Source: Bdellovibrionales bacterium (lineage in GTDB: Archaea; Nanobdellota; Nanobdellia; Woesearchaeales; UBA583). Taken from it: 64,000 nucleotides of DNA. The stretch spans positions 11,208-75,207 of the forward strand of contig CAXPJQ010000059.1 of assembly GCA_964217375.1 (NCBI GenBank). Reading direction: 5' to 3'. Below are positions 25,016-53,189 of the stretch, piece by piece. The notes beneath the pieces are model-generated. The model was not told the origin of the DNA and did no database searches. It saw only the letters and a program-made list of their open reading frames with translations. Numbering within the stretch: position 1 is the stretch's first letter; the number at the start of each line of letters is the position of its first letter. The position numbers were made by a program, and so were the translations under genes.

Positions 25016-28000
25016 CTATTCAATTAAAATATCTACAAATAACTTTTTCAATTTCTCATAAATTAAAATAATTGGAGTTGATTCCGAGATATCATCATCA
25101 TTTTCTGCCCTAAATGCAATTTCAAGCTCAGCTTTTTGAGTTGAATCAATGATATATGAACTCAAATCAATATTATATATATTTTCTCCCTCTAAGTATT
25201 CTCCTAAAATTCTAGATTCTCCATTTATATATATCTCAACAACTGCATTTTGAGTTAAATCAATTCCAAAACTTAATTCATCTCCAAAGTAAAAATAATC
25301 TCCTCCAAAGTTATATGCTCCTGAAATTAATCTAGAATTTATATCTAAACTATTTTGATTATCTCCAGTTCCAGGATTTTCATTCCCCCCACTTTGATCA
25401 TCATCGTCATCCTCTTCATCTCTTATTACTTCAAATTCAACATCTTCTCCCTCATCATCATCTCCTCCTGAATCTCCAGAACCATCATCAACTTGAGTTT
25501 CATCTTCAGTTACTACATAATTTAAAATCAAATTATATGTATTTAATCCAATTGCTGAATCAATTAAACAAATAAAATTAACTCCATCAAAATCACAAGT
25601 ATAACTCTCATAAGCTCTATCTAAACTCTCAACTGAAATAGATTCAATTAATTTATTTGATACGACACTTCCTTGAATATAATTTTCTTTACTCTCAACT
25701 CTAAAATCATTTCCATTAAAATAAACTTTCTCAAAATTTGAAATACTCATCCCAAAATTTTCAACCACAATAGTTTCATCAACTACATTTCCAAATGCAT
25801 CTTGAGCTACTAATTCTACTTGATCTTGTGGAATTATGAAACAATATCCTAAACTAAATTTACTCACGCAACCTGTATCTAAATTCTCTTTAATAGACTT
25901 TCCCTCACTTAAAATATCATAACTTGCCAAAAAAGAATAACTTGAATCTAAATGTAGATAATTAAATCCTTCATCTTGTTCAAAAATATATTGAGGTTTT
26001 GTTGAATCTAATGTAAGTAAATATTGAATTTCTGAATTTCTATGTGATAATGAATTTCTTCCAATTAAATTAAATACTGATATCCCTTCTCTTTGTTCAG
26101 CAGAATATATAAAATTATTATTTAGATTTGTTCTCTTAAAATTTGAATTTTCTAGGGAAACTAATTCTTCTTCTCCTAAATAATCATTAAATATATCGCC
26201 CACATAAAAATTAACCCCCTCTCCTAAATTTGAAGTGAAATCATTTGAATCCTCAGATAAAGTATTTTGTAAATTAAGAGAAGCCATTCCCCTCCCAAAT
26301 ATATCACTTCCTGCAAAGTCAAAAGAACCATCCTCAACATTTACAAAAGCTTCAAAATAATTATCTCCAAAAACATTTGAAACTAAATTATTATTAATAG
26401 TAAATGAACCAACATTAAATATCTCACTTTGAACTCTTCCACTTAACCTAACATATTTTTTTAATCCTACATCACTTGATCTAACATAATTAGTTAATGA
26501 ATCTAATTTTACTTTAGGTGAAGATTCAATTACATAATATGTATATTCTTTTGTAAATTCATTACCTGATCCATCTTGATAAATAAATTCAACTTTCCCA
26601 CTATCATCGCTAAATTCTAAACTTTGAACATCTAAATTTAATCCTGAATTTAGAGTATAATTTGTATGGTCAATATCATCAACATAAATATGTTTAAATG
26701 AAATTGGTTGAGATAACTTTGCTTGAAAAGATGCTTCATCTTCTGAAACAAAAATGATATCTCCTAAAAATACTATTTCATTTGAACTAAATTCTCCAAA
26801 ATCTCCAAAATTTGAATTAATATTTACTCTTCCATCTAAATTAATAGAATTTCCTAAATAATCCTCAGCTGATAAACTATATTGATAATTACCATCATCT
26901 AAATTGGAGATATCAAAGATATAATAATTCCCATACCTTGAAGAGTAATCTAAATCAATTGAATTTATATTTAATTTAATTGAAGATAAATCTAAACCTA
27001 TATCATCTTTAATTTCAAATACTAAATTATTTGCAAACCCTACATTATTAAAATTTAAATTTGAAATCTCTGGGTTTTGTGAATCTCTATATACAATAAA
27101 TTCTCTATATTCTCCATTACTTCCATATAATTCAACAACTGATCTTTTTTTAGTTACTCCATTTACATTAATTAAAAAATCTAAATTCTCAAAACTTGTT
27201 TCATATGAACTTTTATACACTCCATCAACATATATTAAAAATTCTCCAGGAATTGTTGTTGAACCTGAGATACTAAAAAAATCTCCTGAAAACACTTTTT
27301 GATAATAAAAAGAATTAAATCTAAAACTTTGATCTAAATACTCAATTTCATAGATTTCTCCCTCTCCATTTCTATCTACAACTTCAATTTGATTAACACC
27401 TACATTTAATTCAACAAATGCTCCAAACTTATTAGAAATAACTGGAATTCTTTGCCCATTTACATAAACAATTGTTCCATCTTGGGCTTGAGTTGAACCC
27501 TCAATATAAAAATTTCTTTTATATGTTTGAGAGTTATATACTTTATTTACTAAATTAATTACCTCTAAATTTAAAGAAATAGTTGAATCTAAATTTTCAT
27601 ATGAAAAATTTGGTCTCTCCTGAGAATATACATATCTCTCAACAGGTTCAGAGTTTAATCCATTTTGAGATACTGCAATGAATTTTAAATAACCTCCATA
27701 CCCATTTAAATTTAAATTAAAACTTTTATCATTATTTACTGAAGTTGTTGCAATTAAATTATTATTATAATCTCTTGCCTCAATTGTATCTCCACTATGA
27801 TCTCCAAATCCACTTACTTGAGATGACTCAATAATTAAAGGAATTTGAGGAGGTGTTGGTTGATTCAAATCTACAACTAATTCAAAACTTTTTTGTGCAA
27901 GTAACTGGTCAACATCATCATATGATTTCACATTCAAATCATAAACACCAGATTTAACTAAAGCATTTTCAAGTTCAAAATTTGAATTTGAAACTTCCTC

Positions 28001-28216
28001 ATTCAAATTAGTCCATCTTGAATTTTCATTTTGAATTGATAATGTAGATTTACTAACTAAATCAATATTTTCTCCAAAACTTAAAGAGATATCTCCCAAG
28101 CCAGTATAATACCTTGGACACTGTGTTAAATTTGAATTCTCAAAGCTACAACTTGCATAACTTGAACTAAAAAATAGAGAAAAAATCCCTAAAAACAAAA
28201 ATAAACTTCTAAACAT
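25016..28216 (-). CDS. large secreted cell-surface protein (S-layer/adhesin candidate) with poly-acidic linker
   Basis: Signal peptide 'MFRSLFLFLGIFSLFFSSSYASC'. 1066 aa, rich in Asn/Ser/Tyr beta-type sequence. Acidic run 'DDGSGDSGGDDDEGEDVEFEVIRDEEDDDDDQSGGNENPGTGDNQ'. Confidence 0.5.
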   Translation of the reverse strand: MFRSLFLFLGIFSLFFSSSYASCSFENSNLTQCPRYYTGLGDISLSFGENIDLVSKSTLSIQNENSRWTNLNEEVSNSNFELENALVKSGVYDLNVKSYDDVDQLLAQKSFELVVDLNQPTPPQIPLIIESSQVSGFGDHSGDTIEARDYNNNLIATTSVNNDKSFNLNLNGYGGYLKFIAVSQNGLNSEPVERYVYSQERPNFSYENLDSTISLNLEVINLVNKVYNSQTYKRNFYIEGSTQAQDGTIVYVNGQRIPVISNKFGAFVELNVGVNQIEVVDRNGEGEIYEIEYLDQSFRFNSFYYQKVFSGDFFSISGSTTIPGEFLIYVDGVYKSSYETSFENLDFLINVNGVTKKRSVVELYGSNGEYREFIVYRDSQNPEISNLNFNNVGFANNLVFEIKDDIGLDLSSIKLNINSIDLDYSSRYGNYYIFDISNLDDGNYQYSLSAEDYLGNSINLDGRVNINSNFGDFGEFSSNEIVFLGDIIFVSEDEASFQAKLSQPISFKHIYVDDIDHTNYTLNSGLNLDVQSLEFSDDSGKVEFIYQDGSGNEFTKEYTYYVIESSPKVKLDSLTNYVRSSDVGLKKYVRLSGRVQSEIFNVGSFTINNNLVSNVFGDNYFEAFVNVEDGSFDFAGSDIFGRGMASLNLQNTLSEDSNDFTSNLGEGVNFYVGDIFNDYLGEEELVSLENSNFKRTNLNNNFIYSAEQREGISVFNLIGRNSLSHRNSEIQYLLTLDSTKPQYIFEQDEGFNYLHLDSSYSFLASYDILSEGKSIKENLDTGCVSKFSLGYCFIIPQDQVELVAQDAFGNVVDETIVVENFGMSISNFEKVYFNGNDFRVESKENYIQGSVVSNKLIESISVESLDRAYESYTCDFDGVNFICLIDSAIGLNTYNLILNYVVTEDETQVDDGSGDSGGDDDEGEDVEFEVIRDEEDDDDDQSGGNENPGTGDNQNSLDINSRLISGAYNFGGDYFYFGDELSFGIDLTQNAVVEIYINGESRILGEYLEGENIYNIDLSSYIIDSTQKAELEIAFRAENDDDISESTPIILIYEKLKKLFVDILIE

Positions 28217-28290: not shown

Positions 28291-30117
28291 TTATAAATAA
28301 ACTTCTTCAACTTTAAAGAGTTTTTTAACTGCTTTTAATAAAGAATCATCTAAATTAAGGGCTGAGAATTTTGAAGTATCCACATAGTTATCTCTAGTTT
28401 TCTCAACTTTTTCAAATGAAGTTTTTTTCATCTCATAACAATCTCCACTTGATACATCAATTAAAACTCTAACTCCATCATAATTAAAAACTTCACAAGT
28501 TTTATTTTCTGAATGTGTTAATGTTAATTTTCTTCTATTTAATTCTGATAAAATGCTTTTATCCCTAAAATCTTTAATTTCAGCTAAAACATTTCTTACA
28601 TCTTTTAATACTTTATTTACTTCAGTTGTTGTAATTTTTCCTGAATCAAAATCTTTTTTCCCTTTAATAATTGAGGCAAGAGATTTTTTCACAAAAGGTT
28701 GTAATTTTCCTGAATTAACAAAATCACTCTCAAATTGAGTCATAATTTTTTTCTCGGAAATTTCCCCTAACCCTGGTAATGTTCTTAATTGTGTTAATAA
28801 CTCCCCATATGCTGAAATTACTGACTCTTTAGTTTTATCCTCAGTTACTTCCTCAAACATTTTTTTCATATTTTTTAAGAAAGAATCTGCATTTTTAAGC
28901 ATTTTATCAACATCTCCTCCTTTAACTTCAGTTTCTCTATCATGTTCAATTTTTTTAAACATTGCAACTGTATCCTCAAGAGTTTTAACATCTTTTGCTG
29001 AAACACATTTTTCTTTCTCAAGTAAAACCTCTTTAAAAATTTTAACTGTCTCTTTAGGAGTTGTAGGGTTAAATCCTTTAAGCATTAAAATTGCTTGAGC
29101 TGGGTTTAATACTGCATAATACACATCATTCATTACAATTTCAGATAACTGTTTTTTAGCTCTATCAGTTAATTGATGTGCAACATTCATATGCATATCA
29201 ATTGCCTCTGGTGATGGTCTAATTTTCCCTAACTTTAACAATTCTTTCCAAGAATTATATAATCCTCTATCATAAAATGGAACTCCATCTCTTAAGAAAG
29301 TAAACATAACTGGATGTGCATCTTTTAGAGCATCCCAGAAATCAGTTAATAAATATACTTGAGTATGTACATTAATTCCTGTAAGTTGTGCAACTTCTTG
29401 AGCCATTTGCCAAATAATTCTAGTTAATTGTTCTTTAACTTGCATCCTAGGCATTCTCTTAACATCAGTATCATCAACCACAACAAAAACATCAAAATCA
29501 TTTGATTTCTCTCCTCTAAGCCAAGATCCAGCTCCTGCGTAAACTACAACATACTTCTCAAATTTTTGTAAAAGCATATTTCTATGAATATCAATTGATT
29601 TTAAAGCTGAAATAAATCCTCTTGGGTCTTCAAATACAAATGATGAACCAAGAGATTTTAAGTCATCATATACTGAATCAAAACAGTTCTCTCTTAAAAT
29701 TGAAATTGATGATCCAACAAATTTAATTTCTTTATTATCTTTAAAATGATATTGAGCATATTCTTGTCCATATTCATCTTTTTTCTTCTCTTCAATTAAA
29801 AAATTTTCAAATTCTTCTTGAAGTAATAACTTAGGGTCAAATACTGGAATTGGTTTATCAAAGTCATCAAGTAAAAAATTAAATGTCAATTTATCAAAAT
29901 TAGGTATAGCTTGGTTATTTTTAACTTCAATACTTGGGTTAATGTAAAATCCCATGGATTTACCCATTGCCTTTTTATTTACAATATCTGCAAATTTTCT
30001 AAAAAAATCTTTATGTTTTTCAAGTTTTGATTTAATATCTTGAGGTAATCTTGCAATTTCTTTCTCAAAAATTGAGATTTCCTCTTTTTTCTCTACTTTT
30101 TTCTCAGTCTGAGCCAT
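28291..30117 (-). CDS. pol-beta-superfamily nucleotidyltransferase-domain protein of unknown function (608 aa)
   Basis: Central 'VVVYAGAGSWLRGEKSNDFDVFVVVDD', matching G[GS]x9-13 D-x-D, with a later acidic 'LLTDFWDAL'. Long helical N- and C-terminal regions without recognisable motifs. Confidence 0.4.
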   Translation of the reverse strand: MAQTEKKVEKKEEISIFEKEIARLPQDIKSKLEKHKDFFRKFADIVNKKAMGKSMGFYINPSIEVKNNQAIPNFDKLTFNFLLDDFDKPIPVFDPKLLLQEEFENFLIEEKKKDEYGQEYAQYHFKDNKEIKFVGSSISILRENCFDSVYDDLKSLGSSFVFEDPRGFISALKSIDIHRNMLLQKFEKYVVVYAGAGSWLRGEKSNDFDVFVVVDDTDVKRMPRMQVKEQLTRIIWQMAQEVAQLTGINVHTQVYLLTDFWDALKDAHPVMFTFLRDGVPFYDRGLYNSWKELLKLGKIRPSPEAIDMHMNVAHQLTDRAKKQLSEIVMNDVYYAVLNPAQAILMLKGFNPTTPKETVKIFKEVLLEKEKCVSAKDVKTLEDTVAMFKKIEHDRETEVKGGDVDKMLKNADSFLKNMKKMFEEVTEDKTKESVISAYGELLTQLRTLPGLGEISEKKIMTQFESDFVNSGKLQPFVKKSLASIIKGKKDFDSGKITTTEVNKVLKDVRNVLAEIKDFRDKSILSELNRRKLTLTHSENKTCEVFNYDGVRVLIDVSSGDCYEMKKTSFEKVEKTRDNYVDTSKFSALNLDDSLLKAVKKLFKVEEVYL

Positions 30118-30179: not shown

Positions 30180-31019
30180 TTATCCATAAGCCTCGTATTT
30201 TTTTAAACCTATTTTCCAATTAAAATAAATTAAAATATTTAAAATTAAAATAATTAAAAAAAATATTAAAAATAAATCCAAATAAAAAAAATAATCTATA
30301 TTAATATCATTTAATAAGGGAATTATTAATTTTCCAATAATATATGCAGGAAATAAAAAAAATAAATTAACTAATTTAAATTTATTAAAAAAAGGTGCAG
30401 GATATAAAACAAAAAGTGAGTTAGTCCTATATAATAGATTAGTTAAATTTTTTTCAAAATTTTTATAAAAAAAAGCAATTGAATAAATTAAATTATACAA
30501 AGAAAAATAAATTAAAATACAAAACAAAAAAAGAATTAGCAAGAAAATACAATTTAATAAATTCATCTGAAAACTCATAATTAAAATTATTAAAATTGGA
30601 ACATTAACAATTACATATGTTAATGAGGATGGAGATAAATCTGAAAAATGATATTTAAATAATAATTCTCCAGGTCTTACTAATAAATTATTTAGTTCTC
30701 CTTTTAAAATTATTTCAGTAAGAAAATCACTCTTCCATGCAAAAATTCCTGCAGTTGTCCTTAGAGTATCTTCAATTAAAATAAATGTAAAAATTAAAAC
30801 TGAACTCCAAGTAATAATTTCATCAAAATTTTGATTTAAAACTAAAACGAAAATAAAAAAAGTTGAAAGGTAAAAAATTTGTTCAAAAAAAGCTGAATAA
30901 AAATTTGATTTATACTCAATTAATCTCTTTAACATAATCTTAACATTCTCAAAAATATAATTAATATAAAAATTCATTTTTATCCAAAAGCCTCGTATTT
31001 TTTTAGGCCAATTTTCCAA
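30180..31019 (-). CDS. ABC-2/DUF990-like polytopic permease paralog 1 of the tandem array (probable true start at the Met of 'MNFYINYIF', about 30977)
   Basis: About 265 aa and polytopic. Family motifs 'G.LN..L.KP.NPF' (here 'GELNNLLVRPGELLF') and C-terminal 'FNWKIGLKKYEAYG*'. The annotated N-terminus 'MENWPKKIRGFWIKM' is the preceding paralog's 3' end read in another frame. Confidence 0.6.
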   Translation of the reverse strand: MENWPKKIRGFWIKMNFYINYIFENVKIMLKRLIEYKSNFYSAFFEQIFYLSTFFIFVLVLNQNFDEIITWSSVLIFTFILIEDTLRTTAGIFAWKSDFLTEIILKGELNNLLVRPGELLFKYHFSDLSPSSLTYVIVNVPILIILIMSFQMNLLNCIFLLILFLFCILIYFSLYNLIYSIAFFYKNFEKNLTNLLYRTNSLFVLYPAPFFNKFKLVNLFFLFPAYIIGKLIIPLLNDINIDYFFYLDLFLIFFLIILILNILIYFNWKIGLKKYEAYG

Positions 31020-31813
31020 TTAAATAAAAATAGTATTAAGTAAATAAAAATTGCCATAAACAAATAAAAAAATAAATCAAATCTTGATATATTTAAATTA
31101 TTTGGAAATAAAAATAAAACTAAAATTGAGTGGAAAAAAATAAATAAAAGAAATTTAAATTTAATCAACTTAAAAAAATTAATCGGATAATTTGATAAAA
31201 TTCCACTAACTGGATAAAATATTTTTAAAATCTCAAAATCTAATTTTTTATAATAAAAACCTAAAGTTTCAATTAATTGATGAAAAAGAAATTGATAAAC
31301 AATTAATATTAATACTAATAAAAACCAAACTAAAAGATTAATCTCTCTTTCATTAAAAAAAATTAATAAAACAAATAATTCAAATAAAGAAAATAAAAAA
31401 TAAATCAATGCAGAAGAAGATAAATTATGAAAATAATATTTTAACTTTATATTAAGAGGCATTACTAAATGATTATTAAATTGAGAATTAATAATTGAAT
31501 AAGAAATTGATTTTCCCCAGATAAAAAAACCAATGAATTGATAAATAATTTTAATTAAAACCTGATAAATAAGAAAATCAACAAAACTCCAACCTATCAC
31601 ATCTCCAAAATTTTTAGCAACAATGAAACTTACAAAATAAGAAATTATAACATAAATTATTTGTATTAAAAACACAGAGTATAAGTTTGCTCTATACTCT
31701 TTCATTGTTTGAAACATCAAAAATAAGTTTACTTTAAACAAATCAAAATATCTTGAATTAAACTCTTTCATTTTTATCCAAAAGCCTCGTATTTTTTTAG
31801 GCCAATTTTCCAA
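30980..31813 (-). CDS. ABC-2/DUF990-like permease paralog 2 (probable start at 'MKEFNSRYF', about 31771)
   Basis: Ends 'FNWKIGLKKYEAFG*' and has the internal 'NNHLVMPLNIKLKYYF' block. Its stop and the next gene's ATG are 2 nt apart. Confidence 0.6.
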   Translation of the reverse strand: MENWPKKIRGFWIKMKEFNSRYFDLFKVNLFLMFQTMKEYRANLYSVFLIQIIYVIISYFVSFIVAKNFGDVIGWSFVDFLIYQVLIKIIYQFIGFFIWGKSISYSIINSQFNNHLVMPLNIKLKYYFHNLSSSALIYFLFSLFELFVLLIFFNEREINLLVWFLLVLILIVYQFLFHQLIETLGFYYKKLDFEILKIFYPVSGILSNYPINFFKLIKFKFLLFIFFHSILVLFLFPNNLNISRFDLFFYLFMAIFIYLILFLFNWKIGLKKYEAFG

Positions 31814-32583
31814 TTAAATATTAATATAATTAACAAAACTAAATTTATTAAAAAAAATATGTGTATTGAATTAATAATGTTTAAATAATTATTATCAAAT
31901 AAAGGAATTAAAAAATAACCTATTGAAAATAATGGAAAGAAAATAAAAATTTTATGTAAAAAAAAATTTGAGAATAAAGGTGCAGGTAAATATTTAAAAT
32001 TAATATCGGTAAAAACTAATTTAGATCTAATATTATTGATTGATTTTTTAAATTTAAATCCAAAAGAATCAATAAAATGATAAAATATTAAGTATTGGAT
32101 AAAAAATAAAAAAATAAGTAAAAAAAATATAATTAAAGATAAAAAGGTAATATTAGTTTTAAACATAAAATAAATTATAAATGGAATATAAATCAAATTA
32201 ATAATAACTGTATTAAATGAATGTGAAAAAATATAGTTAAAAAAAGGATTTACAGGTTTTGTAAGTAAAATATTTAATTTCCCTGTTACAATATACTCAG
32301 CAAGAGATCTTCCAAAAAAAGTAACTCCTGCTACATTATTAAGAAAAGTCCCAATTAGATATAATAATAAAAAATCAATATAACTCCAATCAATTAATAA
32401 AGAAAAATTTTGAATTGAAATTGTTGCAGTTGCTAAAACAAAAAACAAGTCTGAAATTTCTCCTAAAATTAAAGCATAAAAAGTTGGTTTATATTCTAAA
32501 AGAGATTTTATTGAAATTTTAAAATTAGTTAAAAATATTTCAAAATATTTTTTAAAAATACCCCTAGTTTTTAAATATGCCAT
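31774..32583 (-). CDS. ABC-2/DUF990-like permease paralog 3
   Basis: N-terminal 'SLLEYKPTFYAL', 'GKLNILLTKPVNPFFNY', and C-terminal 'FNWKIGLKKYEAFG*'. Confidence 0.6.
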   Translation of the reverse strand: MAYLKTRGIFKKYFEIFLTNFKISIKSLLEYKPTFYALILGEISDLFFVLATATISIQNFSLLIDWSYIDFLLLYLIGTFLNNVAGVTFFGRSLAEYIVTGKLNILLTKPVNPFFNYIFSHSFNTVIINLIYIPFIIYFMFKTNITFLSLIIFFLLIFLFFIQYLIFYHFIDSFGFKFKKSINNIRSKLVFTDINFKYLPAPLFSNFFLHKIFIFFPLFSIGYFLIPLFDNNYLNIINSIHIFFLINLVLLIILIFNWKIGLKKYEAFG

Positions 32584-32585
32584 TT

Positions 32586-33383
32586 TTATCCAAAAGCCTC
32601 ATACTTTTTTAAGCCATAATGCCACTCAATTAATAATATAATAAAACAAATTAATCCAAAAAATAAAAAATTAGGTAAATATACAAATACTTCAGTTGTT
32701 CTTCCTTTAAGAATTTCTATGAAGAAGTAATCAATAAAAGCAACTGGAAATAAATAAACTAACTCAACTATTTTTGTATTCTCAAAAAATTTAGGAGTAT
32801 AAGTTTCAACAGTAGAATTTAAATTTCTATAATATATTTCAAAAAGGTAATTAACTAACCCTTTTGTAAAAAAAGCCATACTAAATATTACATTTAAAAA
32901 TAAAACTTGAATTAAAAAACCTATTAATACTATTAAAAAAGCAAATAAAAAATTGCTATAGTCTTGACTTATAAAAATTAAAGATAATGTAATTATAAAT
33001 AAAATAAATGTAAAAGGTATAAATGAACCTCTAATCTCGTGTAAAACTAAAAAAAAAAATGGATTAACTGGTTTTGATAAAATTGTATTTAACTTACCTC
33101 TCTTTAAAATAAATACTAACATTCTAACCCAAAAAAATCTTAAAAATAGTGAAGAAAAAAACCCCATAAAAAAAAATAAAATGAAATCATAAAAATTCCA
33201 ATCTAAAATTCCATTACTCAAGTCATTAAAAAAATAATAAAAAAATAAATATGTTATAGTTAAAGAAACATTTACTAAAAAGCCCATAAAAAAATCAATT
33301 TTATATTCTTTTAATTGTTTCAAAGCTAAGATAAATTGAATTTTATAAACTGAAAAAATATTGGTTTTCATTTTTTTATCCAT
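32586..33383 (-). CDS. ABC-2/DUF990-like permease paralog 4 (probable start at 'MKTNIFS', about 33371)
   Basis: 'LKEYKIDFF', 'RGKLNTILSKPVNPFFF', and C-terminal 'EWHYGLKKYEAFG*'. Confidence 0.6.
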   Translation of the reverse strand: MDKKMKTNIFSVYKIQFILALKQLKEYKIDFFMGFLVNVSLTITYLFFYYFFNDLSNGILDWNFYDFILFFFMGFFSSLFLRFFWVRMLVFILKRGKLNTILSKPVNPFFFLVLHEIRGSFIPFTFILFIITLSLIFISQDYSNFLFAFLIVLIGFLIQVLFLNVIFSMAFFTKGLVNYLFEIYYRNLNSTVETYTPKFFENTKIVELVYLFPVAFIDYFFIEILKGRTTEVFVYLPNFLFFGLICFIILLIEWHYGLKKYEAFG

Positions 33384-34183
33384 AAGCCTCGTATTTTTTT
33401 AATCCGTAATGCCAAAGTAAATATGTTCCAAGTATAAAAAAATAAGAATGTGAATAATATTCCAAAAAAATAATAATAAAACTCCAAAAAATTATTTTTT
33501 AAAATCTCAATATAAAAGTATCCAATTAAAGCATTAGGTAGTAAATATAAAAACCAAAGAATTGAATCTCTAAATACTCTTGGTGTGAATTGCTCATTTA
33601 AATAATGTAGTTGATTTGAAACACTCACAATAAATGAAATATCTTTAATGAAAAATGCAAATGATTGAAAAAAAGAGATAAAAAATACATAATAAATCAA
33701 ACCAAAAAATAAAATTAAAAATGAAAATAGATAATTTGAGTATTCTCCAAAAAAAAGTAATATTAAAAGTATTGGGATAAAAATAAAAGTAGTATAAATT
33801 GCTGAATCTTTATCTCTAAGAGATAAAGCTAAAAATGGATTAATTGGTTTTGAAATCCATATATTTAAGTCTCCATTTAATAGCTTTAAATTAAAATATC
33901 TTAACCTAAACCAATAAGTTGCTTTTGTAATTAATGAAATACTCACATAAAATAAAATAAAATCATAATAACTCCAAGATAAAAATTCTTTTGAAATATC
34001 TTGAAAGATATTATAAAAAAGCAAATATACTAAGGTTAAAATTATATCAAAATAAAATACTGAAAAAAAATTAGCAGGATACTCTTTTATCTGTTTAAAA
34101 GCTTGAGAATAAATTTCTTTCATAAAGTTAATATGTTTTCTAAATGTATTTATTTTATTAATCTCTTTCATTTTTTTATCCAT
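33368..34183 (-). CDS. ABC-2/DUF990-like permease paralog 5, 3'-terminally frameshifted relative to the family
   Basis: 'IKEYPANFF' and 'GDLNIWISKPINPFLAL' are present, but the ORF ends '…TWNIFTLALRIKKIRGLWIKK*'. The family C-terminus 'LLWHYGLKKYEAYG*' is encoded in the adjacent reading frame of the same DNA at 33376..33420. The nearest paralog is 39605..40381. Confidence 0.5.
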   Translation of the reverse strand: MDKKMKEINKINTFRKHINFMKEIYSQAFKQIKEYPANFFSVFYFDIILTLVYLLFYNIFQDISKEFLSWSYYDFILFYVSISLITKATYWFRLRYFNLKLLNGDLNIWISKPINPFLALSLRDKDSAIYTTFIFIPILLILLFFGEYSNYLFSFLILFFGLIYYVFFISFFQSFAFFIKDISFIVSVSNQLHYLNEQFTPRVFRDSILWFLYLLPNALIGYFYIEILKNNFLEFYYYFFGILFTFLFFYTWNIFTLALRIKKIRGLWIKK

Positions 34184-34988
34184 AAGCCTCGTATTTTTTT
34201 AATCCATAATACCAAAGTAAATATGTTCCTAAAATAAAGAAAATAAAACTTGAAAGTATTACTTCAAAATACTTAAAAAATAAATAATTTCCTTTCAAAA
34301 TATTAACTAGAATAAAACTTCCCAAAGCAGAAGGGAAAATATAAATAAATTTCAAAAATAAATTATCCCTAAATGAATTTGGAGTGAATTCTTTTATTCT
34401 ATTATTTATCTTACTAGAAATATCAACTAAAAAAAAATTATTTTTAATAAAAAAAGCAGTTGAAATAAAAAAAGTTACAAATATTATTTGATAAATTGCA
34501 GAAAAAATAAAGTAAAATAAAAAGATAAAATTAAATTGATAAAAATAGAAAAGTAAAAATAGAAAAGATAAAAAAACTAAAGATGAAACAACTAAAACTG
34601 CTCCATTAAATCTAGTTGAAAAATAAAAAAATGGATTAATTGGTTTTGATAAAACAATATTTAATTTACCTTCTAATAAATCCCTATTTAATCTCTTAAC
34701 TGAAAAAACTATTACAAATTTTCCAAGTAATAATAAAATAAAAATAAACATTAAATAATCTACTTCATTCCAATTTGAAATTGAAGAAATTAAAGGAAAA
34801 AAAGCTAAATAAAAAGAAATCATAACTAAAATATAAACTAAATTAATTAGTAAAGCAGACCATAAATTAGCTTTATACTCTTTATTTTGTTTTAAAGCAA
34901 CACTAAAAATCTCAACTAAAACATCAAAATATTTAATGAAAATACTTCTATCTCTAAACTCTTTCATTTTTCTATCCAAAAGCCTCAT
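34176..34988 (-). CDS. ABC-2/DUF990-like permease paralog 6 (probable start at 'MKEFRDRSIF', about 34967)
   Basis: 'NKEYKANLW', 'GKLNIVLSKPINPFFYF', and C-terminal 'WYYGLKKYEAYG*'. Confidence 0.6.
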   Translation of the reverse strand: MRLLDRKMKEFRDRSIFIKYFDVLVEIFSVALKQNKEYKANLWSALLINLVYILVMISFYLAFFPLISSISNWNEVDYLMFIFILLLLGKFVIVFSVKRLNRDLLEGKLNIVLSKPINPFFYFSTRFNGAVLVVSSLVFLSFLFLLFYFYQFNFIFLFYFIFSAIYQIIFVTFFISTAFFIKNNFFLVDISSKINNRIKEFTPNSFRDNLFLKFIYIFPSALGSFILVNILKGNYLFFKYFEVILSSFIFFILGTYLLWYYGLKKYEAYG

Positions 34989-35784
34989 ATTTTTTTAAAC
35001 CATAATGCCAAATTATTTTTTCAAGAAAAATTAAAAAAATTAAAAATAAACCTCCTAAAATATAACTCAAATAAATTAAATCTAGAGAAACTTTTCCAAA
35101 GTAAAAAGAAATAGGTAAAACTCCATAAAGAGAAAAACCTATTATTAAACCAAAGAAAAATAAACTATTTTCAAATAATATTATTGGAAATTGGTGATAT
35201 AATCCGTCAAATCTTCTAAAAAATTTTAAAATTAAATAATTTTCTTTAATAAAAAAAGCAAGAGAATCTAAAACTCTAAATTCAAAAACTAAAATTCCTA
35301 TACCAATTAAGGAAATTAAAAAAGTTAGAATATAACTAGGATTTAAAAAGTTAAAATATAATCCAAAAAATAAAAATAAAATTAAATCAAAAAAGCAATA
35401 AAATAAAGCATAATATGGAAAATAAGTAATTGTACAAAAAAAATTAGTTAAAATTGGTTTAGTTAAATATAAATTTAAATCTCCTAATTTAATAGTATTT
35501 GAAAATTTTTTATACCACAAAAACAACCCAAAACTCATAACTAAAACTTGAGAATGTAAAAACATAAATATAATTTCAAAAATTGTAAAATCAATAAAAG
35601 AAAAATTATTTAATACAACTATTGTTGAAAAAATCATTACTAAATTAAATGTTAAATGGGAAATTGTTCCAGTATAAAACTGAGCCTTATATTGAAGAGC
35701 TTCTTTAATCCCAATACTAAATCTAGTTAAGAAAACATCAAAATATTTACCAATACAATTCCTTTTAACAAATTCTAAACTCAT
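34972..35784 (-). CDS. ABC-2/DUF990-like permease paralog 7
   Basis: 'ALQYKAQFY', 'GDLNLYLTKPILTNFF', and C-terminal 'WHYGLKKYEAFG*'. Confidence 0.6.
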   Translation of the reverse strand: MSLEFVKRNCIGKYFDVFLTRFSIGIKEALQYKAQFYTGTISHLTFNLVMIFSTIVVLNNFSFIDFTIFEIIFMFLHSQVLVMSFGLFLWYKKFSNTIKLGDLNLYLTKPILTNFFCTITYFPYYALFYCFFDLILFLFFGLYFNFLNPSYILTFLISLIGIGILVFEFRVLDSLAFFIKENYLILKFFRRFDGLYHQFPIILFENSLFFFGLIIGFSLYGVLPISFYFGKVSLDLIYLSYILGGLFLIFLIFLEKIIWHYGLKKYEAFG

Positions 35785-35793
35785 AAGAGAGTT

Positions 35794-36633
35794 TTAACCT
35801 CCAAAACTCTCTAATTTTGCAAATCCTTTTTTATATAAATATCTCATAAGTAATGCAAGTAAAATAATCCAGAAAGTGAAAATCCCCATAGCTTTTAATG
35901 CTTCAATTAAAGTTAATTTCCCAAGATATAGTGATGCAAAAGTAAATTCTAAATATAAAAAAGGAGTCCACGCTAAAAAGCTCTGCATCCACATTGGAAA
36001 TAAAGTTAGAGGTAATACCCTTCCTGATAAAATCCATAAAATTTGTTCAATTGATGCTTTAATCCCCCAAATTTCTACAAACCAAAAAGATAACCCTCCA
36101 ATAATTACATACAATACTATATCAAAAATTAACATTAAAAATAAATAAATTACAAATACAATCCAAATTGATCCACTTGGTGTTGGCAAATCAAATAGAT
36201 AAGTCATTACAATTAAAAGAATTGTAAATACAAATAAATTAACTACTTTAGATCCAATTCCATCTGTAAGTAAAGACTTTACAAAATTTACTGGCCTACA
36301 TAAAAAAATTGAAATATCTCCAGATTTAATTGTCTGAGAAATTCTATCTGCAATTTCTGAGGATCTTGCAGTATTTAAAAGTAAACCAATTATTAAATAA
36401 ACCATCATTTCCTGAAAAGTAAATCCTCCAATTGTAAATTCTGAAAGTGATGATACTAAAGCTGTTCCCTCAGCAAGAGCTGTCTCAAATTTTACTTGAT
36501 AAATATAAGACCAAATGTAATAAAAAAACACCCCCATAAATGCAGGTGTTACTAATGCTCCAATTAAATATGACTTATATTCAATTGAAGTTTTAAATCC
36601 AAGTTTAAAATATTCTAAATATTTGTTTGACAT
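35794..36633 (-). CDS. ABC-2/DUF990-like permease, divergent second type (first permease downstream of the nuclease gene)
   Basis: 'SIEYKSYLIGAL', 'GDISIFLCRPVNFVKS', and a divergent C-terminus 'YKKGFAKLESFGG*'. It is less Ile/Phe-biased than the other copies. Confidence 0.55.
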   Translation of the reverse strand: MSNKYLEYFKLGFKTSIEYKSYLIGALVTPAFMGVFFYYIWSYIYQVKFETALAEGTALVSSLSEFTIGGFTFQEMMVYLIIGLLLNTARSSEIADRISQTIKSGDISIFLCRPVNFVKSLLTDGIGSKVVNLFVFTILLIVMTYLFDLPTPSGSIWIVFVIYLFLMLIFDIVLYVIIGGLSFWFVEIWGIKASIEQILWILSGRVLPLTLFPMWMQSFLAWTPFLYLEFTFASLYLGKLTLIEALKAMGIFTFWIILLALLMRYLYKKGFAKLESFGG

Positions 36634-36636
36634 TTT

Positions 36637-37689
36637 TTAATTTAATTCCTCCAATGTTTTTTTTAACTCTTCTACACTTGGAAGCAACCCTTCAAATTTT
36701 TTAGGGAGACTTTTTGTAGTATTGTAGGTTCCAACACCAATTGGTTTTGAAGAATCTTTAAGAGAATATTCTACAATGGTTCTATTTTTTTCTTTACACA
36801 ATATAATTCCAATAGAAGGATTTTCATGTTTTAATTTAACTTTTTCATTTAGAGCAGATAAATAAAAATTCATTTTTCCTGCAAATTCTGGTTTAAATTC
36901 AGTTATTTTTAATTCAATTGCAACTAAACATTGGAGCTCTCTATGAAACAAAAGTACATCAATAAAATATTCTTGATCTCCTATTTCTAATTTATATTGT
37001 GTTCCAACTAAAGAAAAAAAGCCTCCAAATTCTTGTAAACTTTTTTTAATATGTAAAATTAAAGATTCTTCTAGTTCTCTTTCTGAATGTTCTGCACTAA
37101 GCTCTAAAAAATCAAAAGTATATTCATCTTTTATTGCAAGTTTTGCCTGAGACTTAAGATGATTAGGTAAACTTTTTTCAAAATTTGTTTGATTTGTCAT
37201 ATACTTTTCATAAGATTGGTTTTCAATTTGATGTTTTAAAACATTTTTTGTCCATCCAAATTTTTTTGTCATCTTAATGTAAAACTCTCTTTCTAATTCA
37301 TTTTTACATTTTTCAAAAATTAAAACATTTTTTGTCCAACTAATTTCACGCACCAATGGTGCGAGTTTTTCATTATCAAAATAAGAAGAGTAAAATGCTT
37401 TCATTCTTCTAAGAGTTCCAGCTGAGAAACCTGAAATTCCTGGAAATTCTAATTGTAATTCTTTTGAAAGGTTCTCAACAACAGAATCTCCCCAAGAATA
37501 TTTTTTTTGTTTCTCAACAATAAATTTACCTAAATTCCAATATAAATTAATTAATTCTTTATTTACAGTTTTAAGTGCTTTATATTGAGATTCTAAAATT
37601 AAAGATTTCACCTCAACTACAAAATTTTTAAAATTTTTATCTAAATCTGACATTTTATTCTCCTTTATTTTGTTCATACATCTCTGCAA
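36637..37689 (-). CDS. YhcG/DUF1016-family PD-(D/E)xK nuclease (RecB-like restriction-endonuclease fold); probable start at 'MSDLDKNF', about 37653
   Basis: N-terminal DUF1016 block 'NKELINLYWNLGKFIVEKQKKYSWGDSVVENLSKELQLEFPGISGFSAGTLRRMKAFYSSY'. C-terminal nuclease core 'EYFIDVLLFHRELQCLVAIELKITEFKPEFAGKMNFYLS…IGIILCKEKN', in which D, E and K form the PD-(D/E)xK triad. Confidence 0.6.
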   Translation of the reverse strand: MQRCMNKIKENKMSDLDKNFKNFVVEVKSLILESQYKALKTVNKELINLYWNLGKFIVEKQKKYSWGDSVVENLSKELQLEFPGISGFSAGTLRRMKAFYSSYFDNEKLAPLVREISWTKNVLIFEKCKNELEREFYIKMTKKFGWTKNVLKHQIENQSYEKYMTNQTNFEKSLPNHLKSQAKLAIKDEYTFDFLELSAEHSERELEESLILHIKKSLQEFGGFFSLVGTQYKLEIGDQEYFIDVLLFHRELQCLVAIELKITEFKPEFAGKMNFYLSALNEKVKLKHENPSIGIILCKEKNRTIVEYSLKDSSKPIGVGTYNTTKSLPKKFEGLLPSVEELKKTLEELN

Positions 37690-38818: not shown

Positions 38819-39601
38819 TTAACCAAAAGCCTCATACTTTTTTAGTCCTTGTCTCCAAATAAATAAGTTAATAACTCCTAATATAAATAAATATGAAATT
38901 AATACTAATATATAGTTATAAAAATAAGTTAAGTTTCCAAGTAAGATTTGATATGTTAAATAACAAACAACTCCTTGAGGTAAAAAAACAAATATTATCT
39001 TAGCAAAATAGATATGATTCTCAAAAGCTGCATATGTAAATCTTTGAGATATCTCCTCAACACTTTTTGACATTAATTTAATTGATGAACTGTCTTTGAT
39101 AAAAAAACCTAAGATTTCTATAGTATTTGAAAAAAATAATGATCCCATAAATCCTATTATCCAAAATAAAAAACTTAGAAAATAATTTTCAAGTGTATAT
39201 AAAAATAAAACTATTACTAGAATAATTAAATATATGAAAAGTACTACTACCTTTCCCTGTTTAAAATTATTTGTTAAATATACAAAATAAGTAGATATAG
39301 GTTTAAATAAATGAATATTTAAATTTCCTTTTAATAATTCCTTACTAAAGTTAGAAAAATAAAAAATATTGTTTAATCTTAATGAAAATTTTGTAAGAAT
39401 ATAAAAAAATATTAAATCATATACGTCCCAGTTTAAAATAAAATCTCCAACTAAATCAATATATACTAAATAAAATATTATTGTAATTCCAAAAGTAAAA
39501 ATTTCTTTTAAAAAAATAGCATAAAAATCAGATTTATATTCTAAAAATGACTTAATTGAAATAATTAATTTCTCATAAAAATATTCAAAATATTTATTCA
39601 T
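38819..39601 (-). CDS. ABC-2/DUF990-like permease paralog (upstream pair, member 1)
   Basis: 'SFLEYKSDFY', 'GNLNIHLFKPISTYF', and C-terminal 'WRQGLKKYEAFG*'. Confidence 0.6.
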   Translation of the reverse strand: MNKYFEYFYEKLIISIKSFLEYKSDFYAIFLKEIFTFGITIIFYLVYIDLVGDFILNWDVYDLIFFYILTKFSLRLNNIFYFSNFSKELLKGNLNIHLFKPISTYFVYLTNNFKQGKVVVLFIYLIILVIVLFLYTLENYFLSFLFWIIGFMGSLFFSNTIEILGFFIKDSSSIKLMSKSVEEISQRFTYAAFENHIYFAKIIFVFLPQGVVCYLTYQILLGNLTYFYNYILVLISYLFILGVINLFIWRQGLKKYEAFG

Positions 39602-39604
39602 ATT

Positions 39605-40381
39605 TTAACCAAAAGCCTCATACTTTTTCAAGCCAATTTTCCATAAAATATAATTTCCAAATATAAAAATTAAAAATGAAATAATAATAAATATAAAATA
39701 CTTAGAAAGATAATCAAATCTATTATTAACTAATTCAATAAAATAAAAACCAAATAAAGCAGTAGGCAAGTAAAATAAAAAATTTAATTTAGTACCCTCA
39801 AATACCTTTGGAGTAAATCTATCATTTAGGTATGCAACATCTTTGCTAATTCTTATGATAAAATTATTTTGTTTTATAAAAAAAGCTAATGACTCAAAAA
39901 AATCTGTATATACTATGTAATATATTAAACTAAAAAACAACAACAAAATTCCCTGAAATATATTTTGATAAGGTCCATAAAGGTATAATATAATTAAAAA
40001 AAATAAAAAAATAAAAGTTGTAAAAATTGCTCCATCCTTTGCTCTCGAAGACATTCCAATAAAAGGATTAATTGGTTTAGATTTCCAGATATTTAAATCT
40101 CCTAAAAGTAATTGTTTATTTAAACTCCTTAAAATAAAAAAATATGTTCCTTTACTTATCATTTGAATAGTTACATATAGTAAAATAAAGTCTAAATAAG
40201 TCCAACTTAAAAAATTAAGAGATAAGGATTGAATAATTGAATAAAAAAATAGATATACAATAGTCAAAGAAATATCAAAATAAACAATACTCCAAAAATT
40301 AATAGGATATTCTTTAATTTGTTTAAATGCTTGAAAATATATCTCTTTCATAAAATTAAAGTGATTTTTTACAATGTTCAT
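39605..40381 (-). CDS. ABC-2/DUF990-like permease paralog (upstream pair, member 2)
   Basis: 'IKEYPINFW', 'GDLNIWKSKPINPFIGM', and C-terminal 'WKIGLKKYEAFG*'. Its N-terminal third is near-identical to that of paralog 5. Confidence 0.6.
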   Translation of the reverse strand: MNIVKNHFNFMKEIYFQAFKQIKEYPINFWSIVYFDISLTIVYLFFYSIIQSLSLNFLSWTYLDFILLYVTIQMISKGTYFFILRSLNKQLLLGDLNIWKSKPINPFIGMSSRAKDGAIFTTFIFLFFLIILYLYGPYQNIFQGILLLFFSLIYYIVYTDFFESLAFFIKQNNFIIRISKDVAYLNDRFTPKVFEGTKLNFLFYLPTALFGFYFIELVNNRFDYLSKYFIFIIISFLIFIFGNYILWKIGLKKYEAFG

Positions 40382-42117
40382 TTTTGCATATTTAACATAT
40401 TATAAAATTTAGACTTTTTATCTTTTATTAATTCTTTGTAGTTACCTTGTTCAATTATTTTTCCTTGTTCAAATACAAAAATTCTATCTACATTTTTTAA
40501 TGTGGATAATCTATGTGCAATAATTAAAATTGTTTTATTTTTAATTAAGTCAATTCCTTTTTGAATTTTCATTTCAGTTTTAGAATCAAGAGCTGAAGTT
40601 GCCTCATCTAGAATTAAGATCTCTGAATTTTTACAAATTGCTCTTGCAATTCCAACTCTTTGTCTTTGCCCTCCAGATAATTTATATCCTTTCTCACCAA
40701 TAATTGTATCAAGTCCATTTGGTAATTCTTTAATTACCTCATTAAGTTGAGATATTTCAATTGCTTTTCTCAAAGTTTTGGAATCTATCTCCTTAAACAT
40801 TGTAATATTTTCTTTGAGAGTTACATTTAACATCTCAGTTTCTTGCATAACTTGAGATAAATTATCTAAAAGAGATTGATGTGAAAAATCATAGTAATTA
40901 GTATGATCTACTTTTATTTCTCCTTCATTTATTTGATAAAGTCCTAAAAATAATTTTGAAAGAGTTGATTTTCCTGAACCTGAATGTCCAACAATTCCAA
41001 TTTTTTCATGTTTTTTAATTTTAAATGAAATGTTATCTAAATTATTTTTTTTATTATCATAAGAGAAAGATACATTATTGAAAGAAATTGTTTTCCAATC
41101 TTTTTTAAATTCTTCTTCTCCAAAATACTTTTCTTCTTTAGTTTCAAAAATAGGTATGATTCTATTCATTGCAGATCTAATTGATATAAGATCATTAAGT
41201 ATTGAATTTGATCTCCAAAATGATGCTGTAATTTGATTAAAATATACAAATGAAGTAGCAATAAATCCAACTTCAACTAGTTCATTTGATACAAAGTGTC
41301 CTAGTAATAATAAGAAAAAAAATAAACCAAAAGCGATTAAGTAATTCACATGTTTTGTTCTAGTGTTTCCGATTTTAATTGCTCTGAACTGAACTTCTTT
41401 GAAAGTAATTTCTCCTTTTTTCATAGATGATTTCAAAGATTGAGAAGAACCACTAGATTTTATGGATAAGATATTGTTTGCTCCTTCATTAAGAGACCCT
41501 GAAACTTTTTCTAATACTTTATTTTTCTCTTCTTCTATATCAGCTTGCTTTTTTAAAAAAGATTTCATAATTAAAATAAAAACTCCAACATAGACTATAA
41601 AAAATAATAAAAAATACAAATCTAAAAATAAAAAAATAATAATAACTCCTGAAAAAGTTAATATTAACCCAAGAGCATCTTGATTAAATACATTAATTAA
41701 CTGTCTATAACTACTAGATCCATTGTTTACTTTTTGAAGTTTTGAACCTGAACCATCTTTTTCGTGCCATTTTAATGAAAAATTTAAAAGTTTTTCAAAA
41801 GCAAAATTTCTTGCTTTAAAAGTTGTATTAACACCAATCTCCTTTAGTTTTCTTTTTGCAACCATTCTCACTTGAGAAGTTAATAATCCTGAAAAGAGAA
41901 TTATTCCTGTGTATATGTAAAATAAATTTAATGAATCTCCTTTATTATATTCTGTAAAAAAATTAATTATCAACCCAATAATATATGGGATAATTAGTGT
42001 ATTGGAATGAGATAAAAAATTAAGACTCATATAAAATGAAAACTTTAATCTCTCACCCTCTAAAAAGTGCCATAATGACTTAAACATATGTGTCCATGTA
42101 ATTATTTCTTTGTTCAT
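40378..42117 (-). CDS. fused TMD-NBD ABC exporter (MsbA/multidrug-exporter type)
   Basis: Six predicted TM helices, then Walker A 'GHSGSGKSTLSKLF', signature 'LSGGQRQRVGIARA', Walker B 'ILILDEATSALD', and H-loop 'IIAHRLS'. A 4-nt ATGA overlap joins it to the neighbouring genes on both sides. Confidence 0.85.
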   Translation of the reverse strand: MNKEIITWTHMFKSLWHFLEGERLKFSFYMSLNFLSHSNTLIIPYIIGLIINFFTEYNKGDSLNLFYIYTGIILFSGLLTSQVRMVAKRKLKEIGVNTTFKARNFAFEKLLNFSLKWHEKDGSGSKLQKVNNGSSSYRQLINVFNQDALGLILTFSGVIIIFLFLDLYFLLFFIVYVGVFILIMKSFLKKQADIEEEKNKVLEKVSGSLNEGANNILSIKSSGSSQSLKSSMKKGEITFKEVQFRAIKIGNTRTKHVNYLIAFGLFFFLLLLGHFVSNELVEVGFIATSFVYFNQITASFWRSNSILNDLISIRSAMNRIIPIFETKEEKYFGEEEFKKDWKTISFNNVSFSYDNKKNNLDNISFKIKKHEKIGIVGHSGSGKSTLSKLFLGLYQINEGEIKVDHTNYYDFSHQSLLDNLSQVMQETEMLNVTLKENITMFKEIDSKTLRKAIEISQLNEVIKELPNGLDTIIGEKGYKLSGGQRQRVGIARAICKNSEILILDEATSALDSKTEMKIQKGIDLIKNKTILIIAHRLSTLKNVDRIFVFEQGKIIEQGNYKELIKDKKSKFYNMLNMQK

Positions 42118-52373: not shown

Positions 52374-53189
52374 TCACCCAAAAGCCTCATATTTTTTCAA
52401 GCCAATTTTCCAATTAATAATCAATCCAAAAAATGAAATTAAAAAAAATATTATAAAAAATAGAATTTGTAATTTTAAATTATAAATCTCGCTTCCTCTT
52501 AAAATTGGAATTATTATTGAAGAAACAATAAAAGTTGGAATTAAAAGTAAAAATAATTTTATTTTTAACTTTGAGAAAAATTGAAAGGGGTAAGATTGAG
52601 CCATATCTGAAATACTAAAGTAAAATATTGAAAGTAGTACTTCACCTAATTTTAAAAAATAAAAAGCAAAAGAAGATAAAAAATGATACCATAAAACTAA
52701 GATTACTAATAGGAATATAAAAAATAAAACTAAAATGAATAATGAAAATAAAGTAATTTTAATATAAAATAATAAAAAAGTTACAATTAAAGAATATATT
52801 GTAACTGGAATTATTGTGTTAAATGAAAAACCTAAAATGTAATTTAAAAATACATTCCCTGGTTTTGATAAATAAGTATTAAGTGAGCCTTCCTTTAATT
52901 TATATGATAATCCTTTATTATAGACAAAAAAACCTGAGATATCATTTGCTAGCTGAACTATGTAATATAGTAATAAAAAGTCAATAAAATTCCACCCAAT
53001 TATATCTCCAAAGTTCTCAGAAAAAATAAAACTAAAAGAAACAAATGCAATTGCTAAAAACAATTCAATTAAAATTAAATTATATAAATTTGTTTTAAAT
53101 TCAATTAAAGATTTAAAACTAATTTTAAAATTTTCAAAAAAATAAATTAAATAATGTTTAAATCCTAAACTCATAAATAAAAAATACAA
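52374..53189 (-). CDS. ABC-2/DUF990-like permease paralog (orphan copy, 12 kb from the array)
   Basis: 'SLIEFKTNLY', 'GSLNTYLSKPGNVFLNY', and C-terminal 'NWKIGLKKYEAFG*'. The same 3' DNA repeat 'ccaaaagcctcatatttttt' is present. Confidence 0.6.
   Translation of the reverse strand: MYFLFMSLGFKHYLIYFFENFKISFKSLIEFKTNLYNLILIELFLAIAFVSFSFIFSENFGDIIGWNFIDFLLLYYIVQLANDISGFFVYNKGLSYKLKEGSLNTYLSKPGNVFLNYILGFSFNTIIPVTIYSLIVTFLLFYIKITLFSLFILVLFFIFLLVILVLWYHFLSSFAFYFLKLGEVLLSIFYFSISDMAQSYPFQFFSKLKIKLFLLLIPTFIVSSIIIPILRGSEIYNLKLQILFFIIFFLISFFGLIINWKIGLKKYEAFG

Follow-up and report, generated by a model that had tools for sequence, protein, structure and literature searches.

Transporters of the ATP-binding cassette (ABC) superfamily with permeases of Pfam family PF06182 (ABC2_membrane_6, formerly DUF990) are nearly uncharacterised, one member having been studied in the open-access literature and no solved structure being found by sequence search of the PDB. 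The studied member, EvrABC of Synechocystis PCC 6803, is the DUF990 exemplar and represents the Ethyl Viologen Exporter family, TCDB 3.A.1.141 (PMC5417439). Its operon, like those of the COG4586 + COG4587 + COG3694 systems, encodes one ATPase together with two different PF06182 permeases, each of ~260 amino acids and six transmembrane helices; three-gene operons of natA with COG3694 and COG4587 genes have also been described (PMC6003355, ppGpp-riboswitch paper). Here, we analyse a locus with the same components in a 64-kb stretch of DNA from a DPANN archaeon (contig CAXPJQ010000059.1; the whole stretch is called the window), in which segment 30180-36633 carries a tandem array of PF06182 permease genes near a single ATPase gene of the same transporter type. 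The EvrABC-like core comprises this ATPase, a permease termed A and a second permease termed B (Table 1), a likeness that rests on Pfam family and gene layout. Unlike in EvrABC, the second permease occurs in seven tandem copies (ten in the window) with 21-53% identity among them, there is a single A, and the host belongs to the DPANN archaea. The reading that we favour, with a probability of about one half, is that the locus encodes an EvrABC-like heterodimeric exporter of the type V fold in which the variable half has been multiplied, giving ATPase2-A-Bx isoforms on one motor.

Several better known systems resemble the locus in part. The type V exporters of lipid-linked glycopolymers, Wzm-Wzt, KpsMT and TarGH, are like A and B in having an N-terminal interface helix, six transmembrane helices in ~260 amino acids, no domain swapping and a separate ATPase. 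However, Wzm, KpsM and TarG share only 8-17% sequence identity with A and B, and those permeases are homodimers encoded by single genes. A Pfam search of the window ATPase reveals neither a carbohydrate-binding domain nor any other accessory one, and no glycan-synthesis genes lie adjacent to the locus. Alternative partners are a feature of ABCG half-transporters: Drosophila White pairs with Brown or Scarlet, and human ABCG5 with ABCG8. In these, the nucleotide-binding domain (NBD) is fused to the transmembrane domain and the genes are dispersed rather than set in a coupled tandem array. A single energising component powers several membrane modules that differ in specificity in group II energy-coupling factor (ECF) transporters with exchangeable S components, in the systems of the multitask ATPase MsmX and in MceG systems, where MceG serves Mce1-4 (PMC5730181, PMC9947336 and PMC7658222). 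They offer an analogy for the sharing proposed here; these systems are importers of other folds, and their exchangeable parts tend to be dispersed and under separate regulation, whereas the alternatives here appear to lie in one polycistronic array. LnrLMN (YfiLMN) of Bacillus subtilis also combines an ATPase with two different ABC-2-type permeases and had been named as an analogy in an earlier reading of the bare letters (the sequence-only reading). LnrM and LnrN are described as type V/VI hybrids with large extracellular domains (LnrL2MN; PMC11466899), in contrast to the short loops of the present ~260-amino-acid proteins. The analogy is not supported, LnrLMN being a poor exemplar of PF06182.

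Gene layout, protein family and fold

The window has a GC content of ~24% (20% in the B-gene region) and encodes the archaeal markers LonB, aIF5B, the archaeal primase small subunit, FtsZ and an archaeal-type phenylalanyl-tRNA synthetase. As the sequence-only reading had proposed, 30180-36633 is filled by eight consecutive minus-strand open reading frames (ORFs) of 261-279 amino acids each. Their true starts are internal ATGs, longer ORFs from TTG or ATG running into the tail of the preceding gene. On the minus strand the order is a type-I ABC exporter gene, U1, U2, a gap of 132 nt, the ATPase gene, a DUF1016 nuclease gene, A, and then B to H (Table 1). U1 shares an overlap with the type-I ABC exporter gene upstream of it (40378-42117), at the stop of the latter, and U2 lies upstream of the ATPase gene across the 132-nt gap. 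A scan of the window with a B-type profile hidden Markov model yielded ten B-type genes and one A-type gene, the same eleven family members that had been counted before.

Membership of the ABC-2 permease family PF06182/DUF990, also suggested beforehand, is borne out by profile search: at the gathering score of 22 bits, seven of the eight array genes are recovered (E 4.7e-20 to 2.4e-5), and across the window nine of eleven genes match positions ~2-229 of the 229-position model with scores of 24.7-72.8 bits. The two that miss the threshold, D and U1, nevertheless score 273-278 bits with the B-type profile, which brings D in as the eighth array member. The array had been described as eight copies of one protein. 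The family is indeed common to all, but the copies are not equivalent, one being A-type and seven B-type. A has 15-20% amino acid identity to the other seven, while the seven share 21-37% among themselves, and among all B paralogs the range is 21-53%, the highest value being that of D and its closest paralog U1. Nonetheless, A and the B profile are homologous end to end (hhalign probability 97.8%, E=9e-13, 16% identity). The C-terminus GLKKYEA(F/Y)G that all eight had been said to share is present in six of them; A ends in GFAKLESFGG, and in D the tail has been lost by a frameshift. Nine of the ten window B genes have an intact ORF with all family motifs.

NCBIfam yielded no usable family for any copy, A alone giving a weak KpsM match (3.9e-5, far under the cut-off). 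Neither the B profile nor A had any match among PDB sequences, and a fold search was therefore used. Hydropathy, the positive-inside pattern and the helices of AlphaFold2 models agree on six transmembrane helices in ~260 amino acids with both termini cytoplasmic. The models of E and A have confidence (predicted local distance difference test) values of 90.7 and 89.5, and each shows an N-terminal interface helix followed by six transmembrane helices; the loops are short in both A and B proteins. The nearest structures to the two models are Wzm, KpsM and TarG, followed by ABCG2, ABCG5/8, PmtD and ABCA, and the top match of A is Wzm with TM-scores of 0.68/0.73. According to these models, the A and B proteins have the fold of type V ABC exporters: they superpose on solved transmembrane domains of this type and show no domain swapping.

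Conservation among 46 B-type proteins is concentrated in the C-terminal tail W..GLKKYEAFG, with a column entropy of 0.8 bits vs 2.1-2.9 bits in every other region; further well-kept positions are E22-Y23-K24, W58, G92, N95, P101, F167 and F196. Hydropathy and lysine/arginine counts place the N-terminus, the loop between helices 2 and 3 (G.LN..L.KP.NP), the loop between helices 4 and 5 and the C-terminal tail on the cytoplasmic side. It is at these conserved cytoplasmic elements that the ATPase would dock. The ATPase in question is the only NBD of this transporter type in the window, for ten B genes, the remaining NBDs scoring below 100 bits against it. The DUF1016/YhcG nuclease gene between ATPase and A is an insertion and not a transporter component: it is missing from this site in the related loci L009, L010 and L013, and a 58-amino-acid remnant occupies the site in L019.

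Table 1. Positions of the transporter genes and associated features in the window
Feature	Coordinates	Strand	Evidence or remark
U1, B-type permease paralog	39605..40381	-	B-profile 278 bits; without Pfam match alone
U2, B-type permease paralog	38819..39601	-	PF06182 E=3.6e-10; B-profile 251 bits
ATPase (NBD), 343 amino acids	37655..38686	-	PF00005 E=2.8e-27
DUF1016/YhcG PDDEXK nuclease gene, between ATPase and A	36637..37653	-	PF06250 E=3.1e-57; PF17761 E=3.8e-43
A-type permease	35794..36633	-	PF06182 E=4.7e-20
B-type paralog B	34972..35784	-	PF06182 E=2.6e-11
B-type paralog C	34176..34967	-	PF06182 E=2.4e-5; B-profile 254 bits
B-type paralog D, C-terminus frameshifted	33368..34171	-	B-profile 273 bits; below PF06182 threshold
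T7 run within D, frameshift site	33436..33442	-	one T deleted gives ...FFILGTYLLWHYGLKKYEAYG and stop
B-type paralog E (structure-modelled copy)	32586..33371	-	
B-type paralog F	31774..32583	-	PF06182 E=4.1e-11
B-type paralog G	30980..31771	-	PF06182 E=1.1e-5; 65% identity to L007 copy 5
Junction repeat, one example	30977..31028	-	52 nt
B-type paralog H, final array gene	30180..30977	-	PF06182 E=4.6e-11
B-type paralog X, solo, without adjacent ATPase gene	52374..53174	-	PF06182 E=5.1e-14

Constant and variable subunits in related genomes

Is the multiplied permease a peculiarity of one genome? The relatives compared are all records of archaeal metagenome-assembled genomes (MAGs), mostly labelled Nanoarchaeota, Nanoarchaeia or Woesearchaeota, except L012, a MAG contig labelled Fusobacteriaceae. 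Nine further DPANN loci have an A gene and an array that is not ended by a contig edge, and each contains exactly one ATPase gene, one A gene and then at least two B genes. The number of B genes after A is two in L020, three in L008, L010 and L019, four in L011 and L022, six in L002, seven in the window and eight in L013; L025 has the ATPase-A-B layout too, its B copies being unscanned and one of them disrupted. No locus among those compared has an ATPase and B genes without A. Given this recurrence of ATPase-A-Bn in related loci, the multiplied second permease is a lineage trait and not a single-genome peculiarity. The expansion had been called very unusual; with n=2-8 it is the norm in this DPANN clade, and the seven B genes of the window stand at its high end. 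The accompanying statement that one ATPase with two permeases is the normal arrangement of such systems is supported outside the clade, both by the three-gene operons cited above and by L024, a distant homolog locus with one ATPase and two PF06182 genes. This array architecture is undescribed in the open-access literature searched. Solo B genes, distant from any ATPase-A pair, occur as X in the window and in L003, L004 and L015-L017.

The two halves of the permease differ sharply in their rate of change. Between the window and L010, A is 91% and the ATPase 89% identical, vs 26-52% for the top B matches. Against L008, L011, L012 and L013 (and L002 for A only), full-length A and ATPase genes are 61-73% identical, while the best B matches in the same genomes mostly reach 26-37%, and across genomes the majority of them do not exceed 35%. 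ATPase orthologs of 71-90% identity precede the A gene in related loci, 83 of the 84 A homologs have 50-100% identity, and the mean column identity is 66% for A-type vs 40% for B-type proteins. Clear B orthologs do exist: U1, E and G have counterparts in L007 at 65-78% (U1 matches L007 copy 1 at 78%), and H has an ortholog of ~52% identity in both L007 and L010. A neighbour-joining tree of B proteins has long terminal and short internal branches, from which it follows that reliable orthologies are few, namely those of E, G, H and U1 with L007 and of H with L010.

Because the flanks of the window and of L010 have no common genes, a syntenic pair, L019/L022, was used as a baseline. Both arrays lie between the same flanks, alanyl-tRNA synthetase (AlaRS) and glutamyl-tRNA synthetase (GluRS), and identities are 68% for AlaRS, 56% for GluRS, 80% for the ATPase and 74% for A, vs 54% for the last B and 29% for the only other B that could be matched. 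L025 has the AlaRS ... GluRS flanks again, with yet another set of B genes. As the same flanks enclose differing B sets in these three loci, the B content between fixed anchors turns over. Pairs of B orthologs have dN/dS ratios of ~0.10-0.33 and A and ATPase ratios of 0.075-0.09, which are rough bounds because dS (0.7-1.5) is near saturation; judged from these sequence ratios, the B genes are under purifying selection and appear to be functional genes.

Defence or toxin-antitoxin-type genes are repeatedly found within the arrays of different genomes, often between ATPase and A. They include DUF1016/YhcG PDDEXK nucleases, MNT-type nucleotidyltransferases with HEPN/HepT partners and, in L019, insertion sequence (IS) elements, at window 36637-37653, L019 9823-9999, L002 7401-8412, L022 11872-12509, L007 2638-3692 and L008 6741-7508. 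Window gene 45025-45792 has 52% identity to the L008 insert. At L024 (3225-11768), the genes next to the operon encode radical-SAM/SPASM, B12-binding radical-SAM, PqqD-like and ScmC-like proteins, which makes this a cluster of the type for ribosomally synthesized and post-translationally modified peptides (RiPPs). Such a setting is a hint that PF06182 systems may, among other roles, export peptides or confer immunity to them.

Strain comparison, gene junctions and copy D

A periodic structure of ~800 nt raises the suspicion that a repeat was mis-expanded or collapsed during assembly, and this periodicity is the sole point in favour of such an artefact. The same array is present in GCA_041240545.1 (99.77% identity over 14,475 nt) and in GCA_041241955.1 (99.81% over 8,877 nt), in both cases with zero gaps, so that three independent assemblies share an identical structure. 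The paralogs, at 21-53% amino acid identity and with a longest exact DNA match of 54 nt, are too diverged for a collapsed or expanded repeat. Comparable arrays are also found on L002 and on L019, a contig of 1.09 Mb; contig names of the form 'ctg...l' suggest long-read assembly, as far as names can tell. An artefact, which the sequence-only reading had named as a possible refutation of the array, is thus extremely improbable.

The strains differ by 17-34 single-nucleotide polymorphisms (SNPs). Polymorphic sites between the window and L001 plus L018 number six in the 5.6 kb of B to H and 18 in the 2.9 kb of ATPase, DUF1016 and A, and are thus six times rarer in the former (binomial p=5e-5). They are non-synonymous in four of six cases in B to H and in three of 18 in the other segment (Fisher p=0.038). 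A recent sweep, recombination within the array or base-composition effects may account for the low array polymorphism.

From A to H, the distances from stop to next start are 9, 4, 4, -4, 2, 2 and 2 nt, the negative value being a 4-nt overlap of D with E. Gaps of 2-4 nt had been claimed throughout; they are found at five junctions (4, 4, 2, 2, 2), and A/B with its 9 nt and the overlapping D/E depart from the rule. Such 2-4-nt spacers or overlaps make co-transcription and translational coupling of the array's B-type genes probable. The junctions carry a 52-nt repeat that comprises the codons for W..GLKKYEAFG, the stop codon, two to four A's and the next ATG, and that recurs in nine copies at a spacing of ~790-812 nt. 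The longest exact DNA matches between paralogs all lie at junctions and are longest between neighbours: 54 nt for F/G, 40 + 18 nt for C/D and 32 nt for U1/U2. Despite the 54-nt match, the F and G proteins share no more than 25% identity. Since exact matches persist at neighbouring junctions although the proteins have diverged, short gene-conversion tracts are indicated.

The junctions also have a signature at the level of codon choice. The glutamate codon of the tail is GAG in all ten window B copies, vs 20-38% GAG elsewhere, and across genomes GAG (GAGG) is kept in 27 of 29 genes with a cistron directly after them vs 14 of 22 without (p=0.013). A-type genes end in GGAGG plus the stop codon. 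Most window genes have a TTTATAAA-like (TATA-like) box 20-30 nt (~25) upstream of the ATG and no Shine-Dalgarno motif, a combination which implies that most window mRNAs are leaderless, and GGAGG/GAGG motifs are almost confined to internal operon junctions. The retention of GAGG at junctions in an otherwise Shine-Dalgarno-free genome fits a signal for coupled translation, and we suggest that the tail GAGG may serve as an internal ribosome-binding signal, with a spacing of 13-15 nt that is long for this purpose.

In copy D, an extra T in a T7 run (Table 1) shifts the frame 22 codons before the end of the gene, and deleting one T brings back ...WHYGLKKYEAYG followed by a stop codon. The last ~74 nt of D are almost identical to the 3' end of C. 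The same D sequence is present in both other strains (L001 and L018; assemblies GCA_041240545.1 and GCA_041241955.1), the frameshift thus being fixed in all three. This lesion could be taken to mean that the array is a phase-variable or contingency locus, as the sequence-only reading had offered as one interpretation, in which homopolymer slippage or inter-copy recombination would determine the permease that the cell produces. Long T runs are indeed abundant, the ten window B-type genes having 55 runs of T>=7 (6.9/kb vs 0.7/kb in other genes) with a maximum of T11, and there are conserved 40-54-nt junction repeats and gene-conversion tracts. However, the richness in T runs is explained by a phenylalanine content of 14-19%, encoded as TTT, in a region of 20% GC. 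No indel is found in 8.9-14.5 kb among the three strains with their 17-34 SNPs, including every T>=7 run of the array genes. Inverted repeats in the array are limited to AT-rich matches (<=43 nt, 70-88%) at noise level, with no credible invertase or promoter cassette; a Pfam scan of the window detects no gene for a recombinase within the array or next to it; and the copies all have the same orientation and are coupled. Phase variation is accordingly very unlikely.

Copy D also bears on another explanation, that the copies are mostly redundant or decaying duplicates, with only the first B pairing with A and the rest being dosage copies or young pseudogenes in a process of birth and death. The frameshift of D removes the most conserved motif of the family; B content varies greatly between genomes, in which a number of copies have been shortened or interrupted by IS elements (L019, L002 copy 1, L025); mobile and toxin-antitoxin genes insert in arrays; and four of the six polymorphic array sites are non-synonymous. 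Against this, nine of ten window B genes are intact, E, G, H and U1 have been retained as orthologs elsewhere in the clade's genomes at the dN/dS values given above, the junction signals for coupled translation are maintained, and copies with 21-53% identity are too old and diverged for dosage duplicates. We regard redundancy of most copies as doubtful.

Proposed pairing of the ATPase and A with alternative B proteins

We therefore return to the EvrABC-like exporter with a multiplied variable half. Here, an ATPase dimer and a constant A half-channel would pair with any single B half-channel, the outcome being a battery of ATPase2-A-Bx heterodimeric transporters. The B proteins would share cytoplasmic docking elements, namely the EYK block, the G.LN..L.KP.NP loop and the W..GLKKYEAFG tail, and would differ in the remaining sequence, membrane helices included, and hence in substrate. 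The array appears to evolve by birth, loss and replacement of genes between fixed flanks, with short gene-conversion tracts at the junctions. This model builds on the family, fold, architecture, recurrence, rate contrast and purifying selection described above, from which co-transcription, A-B pairing, ATPase sharing and substrate differences are inferred. It is favoured because two different permeases are canonical for the family and because the pattern of one ATPase, one A and many B is strict; it is further favoured by the equal conservation of A and ATPase vs the turnover of B, and by the retention of cytoplasmic motifs in the B copies. A set of alternative permease modules for one ATPase had already been considered in the sequence-only reading; the gene counts, one ATPase and one A for ten B, make it the best reading available, at the strength of a proposal.

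Several observations weigh against this model. The nearest folds, Wzm, TarG and KpsM, are homodimers, which makes B-B or A-A dimers structurally plausible; the solo B genes of the window and of other loci are far from ATPase-A pairs; D is without the conserved tail in all three strains; and the variable positions of B are scattered over the whole protein with no concentration in an obvious pocket. In addition, the sense strand of the B-type genes (30180-35784, 38819-40381, 52374-53174) contains 21 runs of T>=5 per kb vs 4.1/kb in other genes, with up to T11. Oligo-T is the intrinsic termination signal of archaea, so that co-transcription over 5.6 kb is uncertain.

The first two of these points lend themselves to another explanation, in which B-type proteins act without A as homodimers or B-B' heterodimers on the shared ATPase, A being a paralog that forms a channel of its own. 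It would agree with the closest solved folds, with the B genes that have no adjacent A, and with the position of U1/U2, which belong to a different operon that precedes the ATPase gene. However, PF06182 systems outside the clade retain two different permease genes beside one ATPase gene, every DPANN ATPase locus has exactly one A directly after the ATPase, none being seen with ATPase and B alone, and A is conserved as strongly as the ATPase. Action of B without A is conceivable but, on this balance, unlikely.

What might such transporters move? The nearest folds move lipid-linked polymers, the studied member exports viologens, and the gene content of the U1/U2 operon is of a kind that would suit detoxification or immunity; by analogy, these are weak hints as to substrate. 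The segment 40378-45792 (minus strand) contains closely spaced or overlapping genes for a nucleotidyltransferase, three GNAT acetyltransferases, an S51 peptidase, an APH-family kinase and a fused type-I ABC exporter, followed by U1/U2. It looks like a cluster for small-molecule modification and efflux that ends in two B-type genes without an ATPase gene of their own.

Other neighbours on the minus strand can be listed briefly. Directly downstream of the array, 28291-30117 encodes a protein of 608 amino acids with no Pfam match and one amino acid change in L001. Two genes downstream of the array, 25016-28216 encodes a protein of 1066 amino acids with an N-terminal hydrophobic segment, weak Ig-like matches and an acidic D/E/G-rich stretch, probably a protein of the cell surface; no other gene is as polymorphic between the strains, L001 differing from the window here by 16 nt and six amino acids. 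A second, unrelated ABC-2 system consists of a 595-amino-acid ABC2_membrane_3 permease and two ATPase genes (60503-61234, 61631-63418, 63363-63998), and ABC-2 exporters thus occupy a large share of the window.

ABC exporters are usually regarded as fixed complexes. If the proposed pairing holds, the locus would be a natural case in which transporters of the type V (Wzm/ABCG) fold exchange subunits combinatorially; if the copies are merely redundant, the finding shrinks to a lineage-specific expansion of a gene family. The investment of ~8 kb (ten B genes in 64 kb) in one permease family suggests a central role in the lifestyle of the organism, for which detoxification, immunity to membrane-active compounds and lipid or glycolipid handling are candidates. 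For PF06182 itself, the conserved motifs and the contrast between constant and variable subunits provide concrete experimental targets. A more speculative extension, which we put forward tentatively and consider unlikely, is that a fixed ATPase2-A chassis takes any of up to ten B half-channels as cassettes, with the ~50-nt junction acting both as coupling signal and as recombination substrate for gain, loss, conversion and inter-genome swapping of B genes. DPANN archaea, whose genomes measure ~1 Mb, are host-dependent. Were the extension true, such a ~1-Mb symbiont could retune export or protection as its hosts or competitors change.

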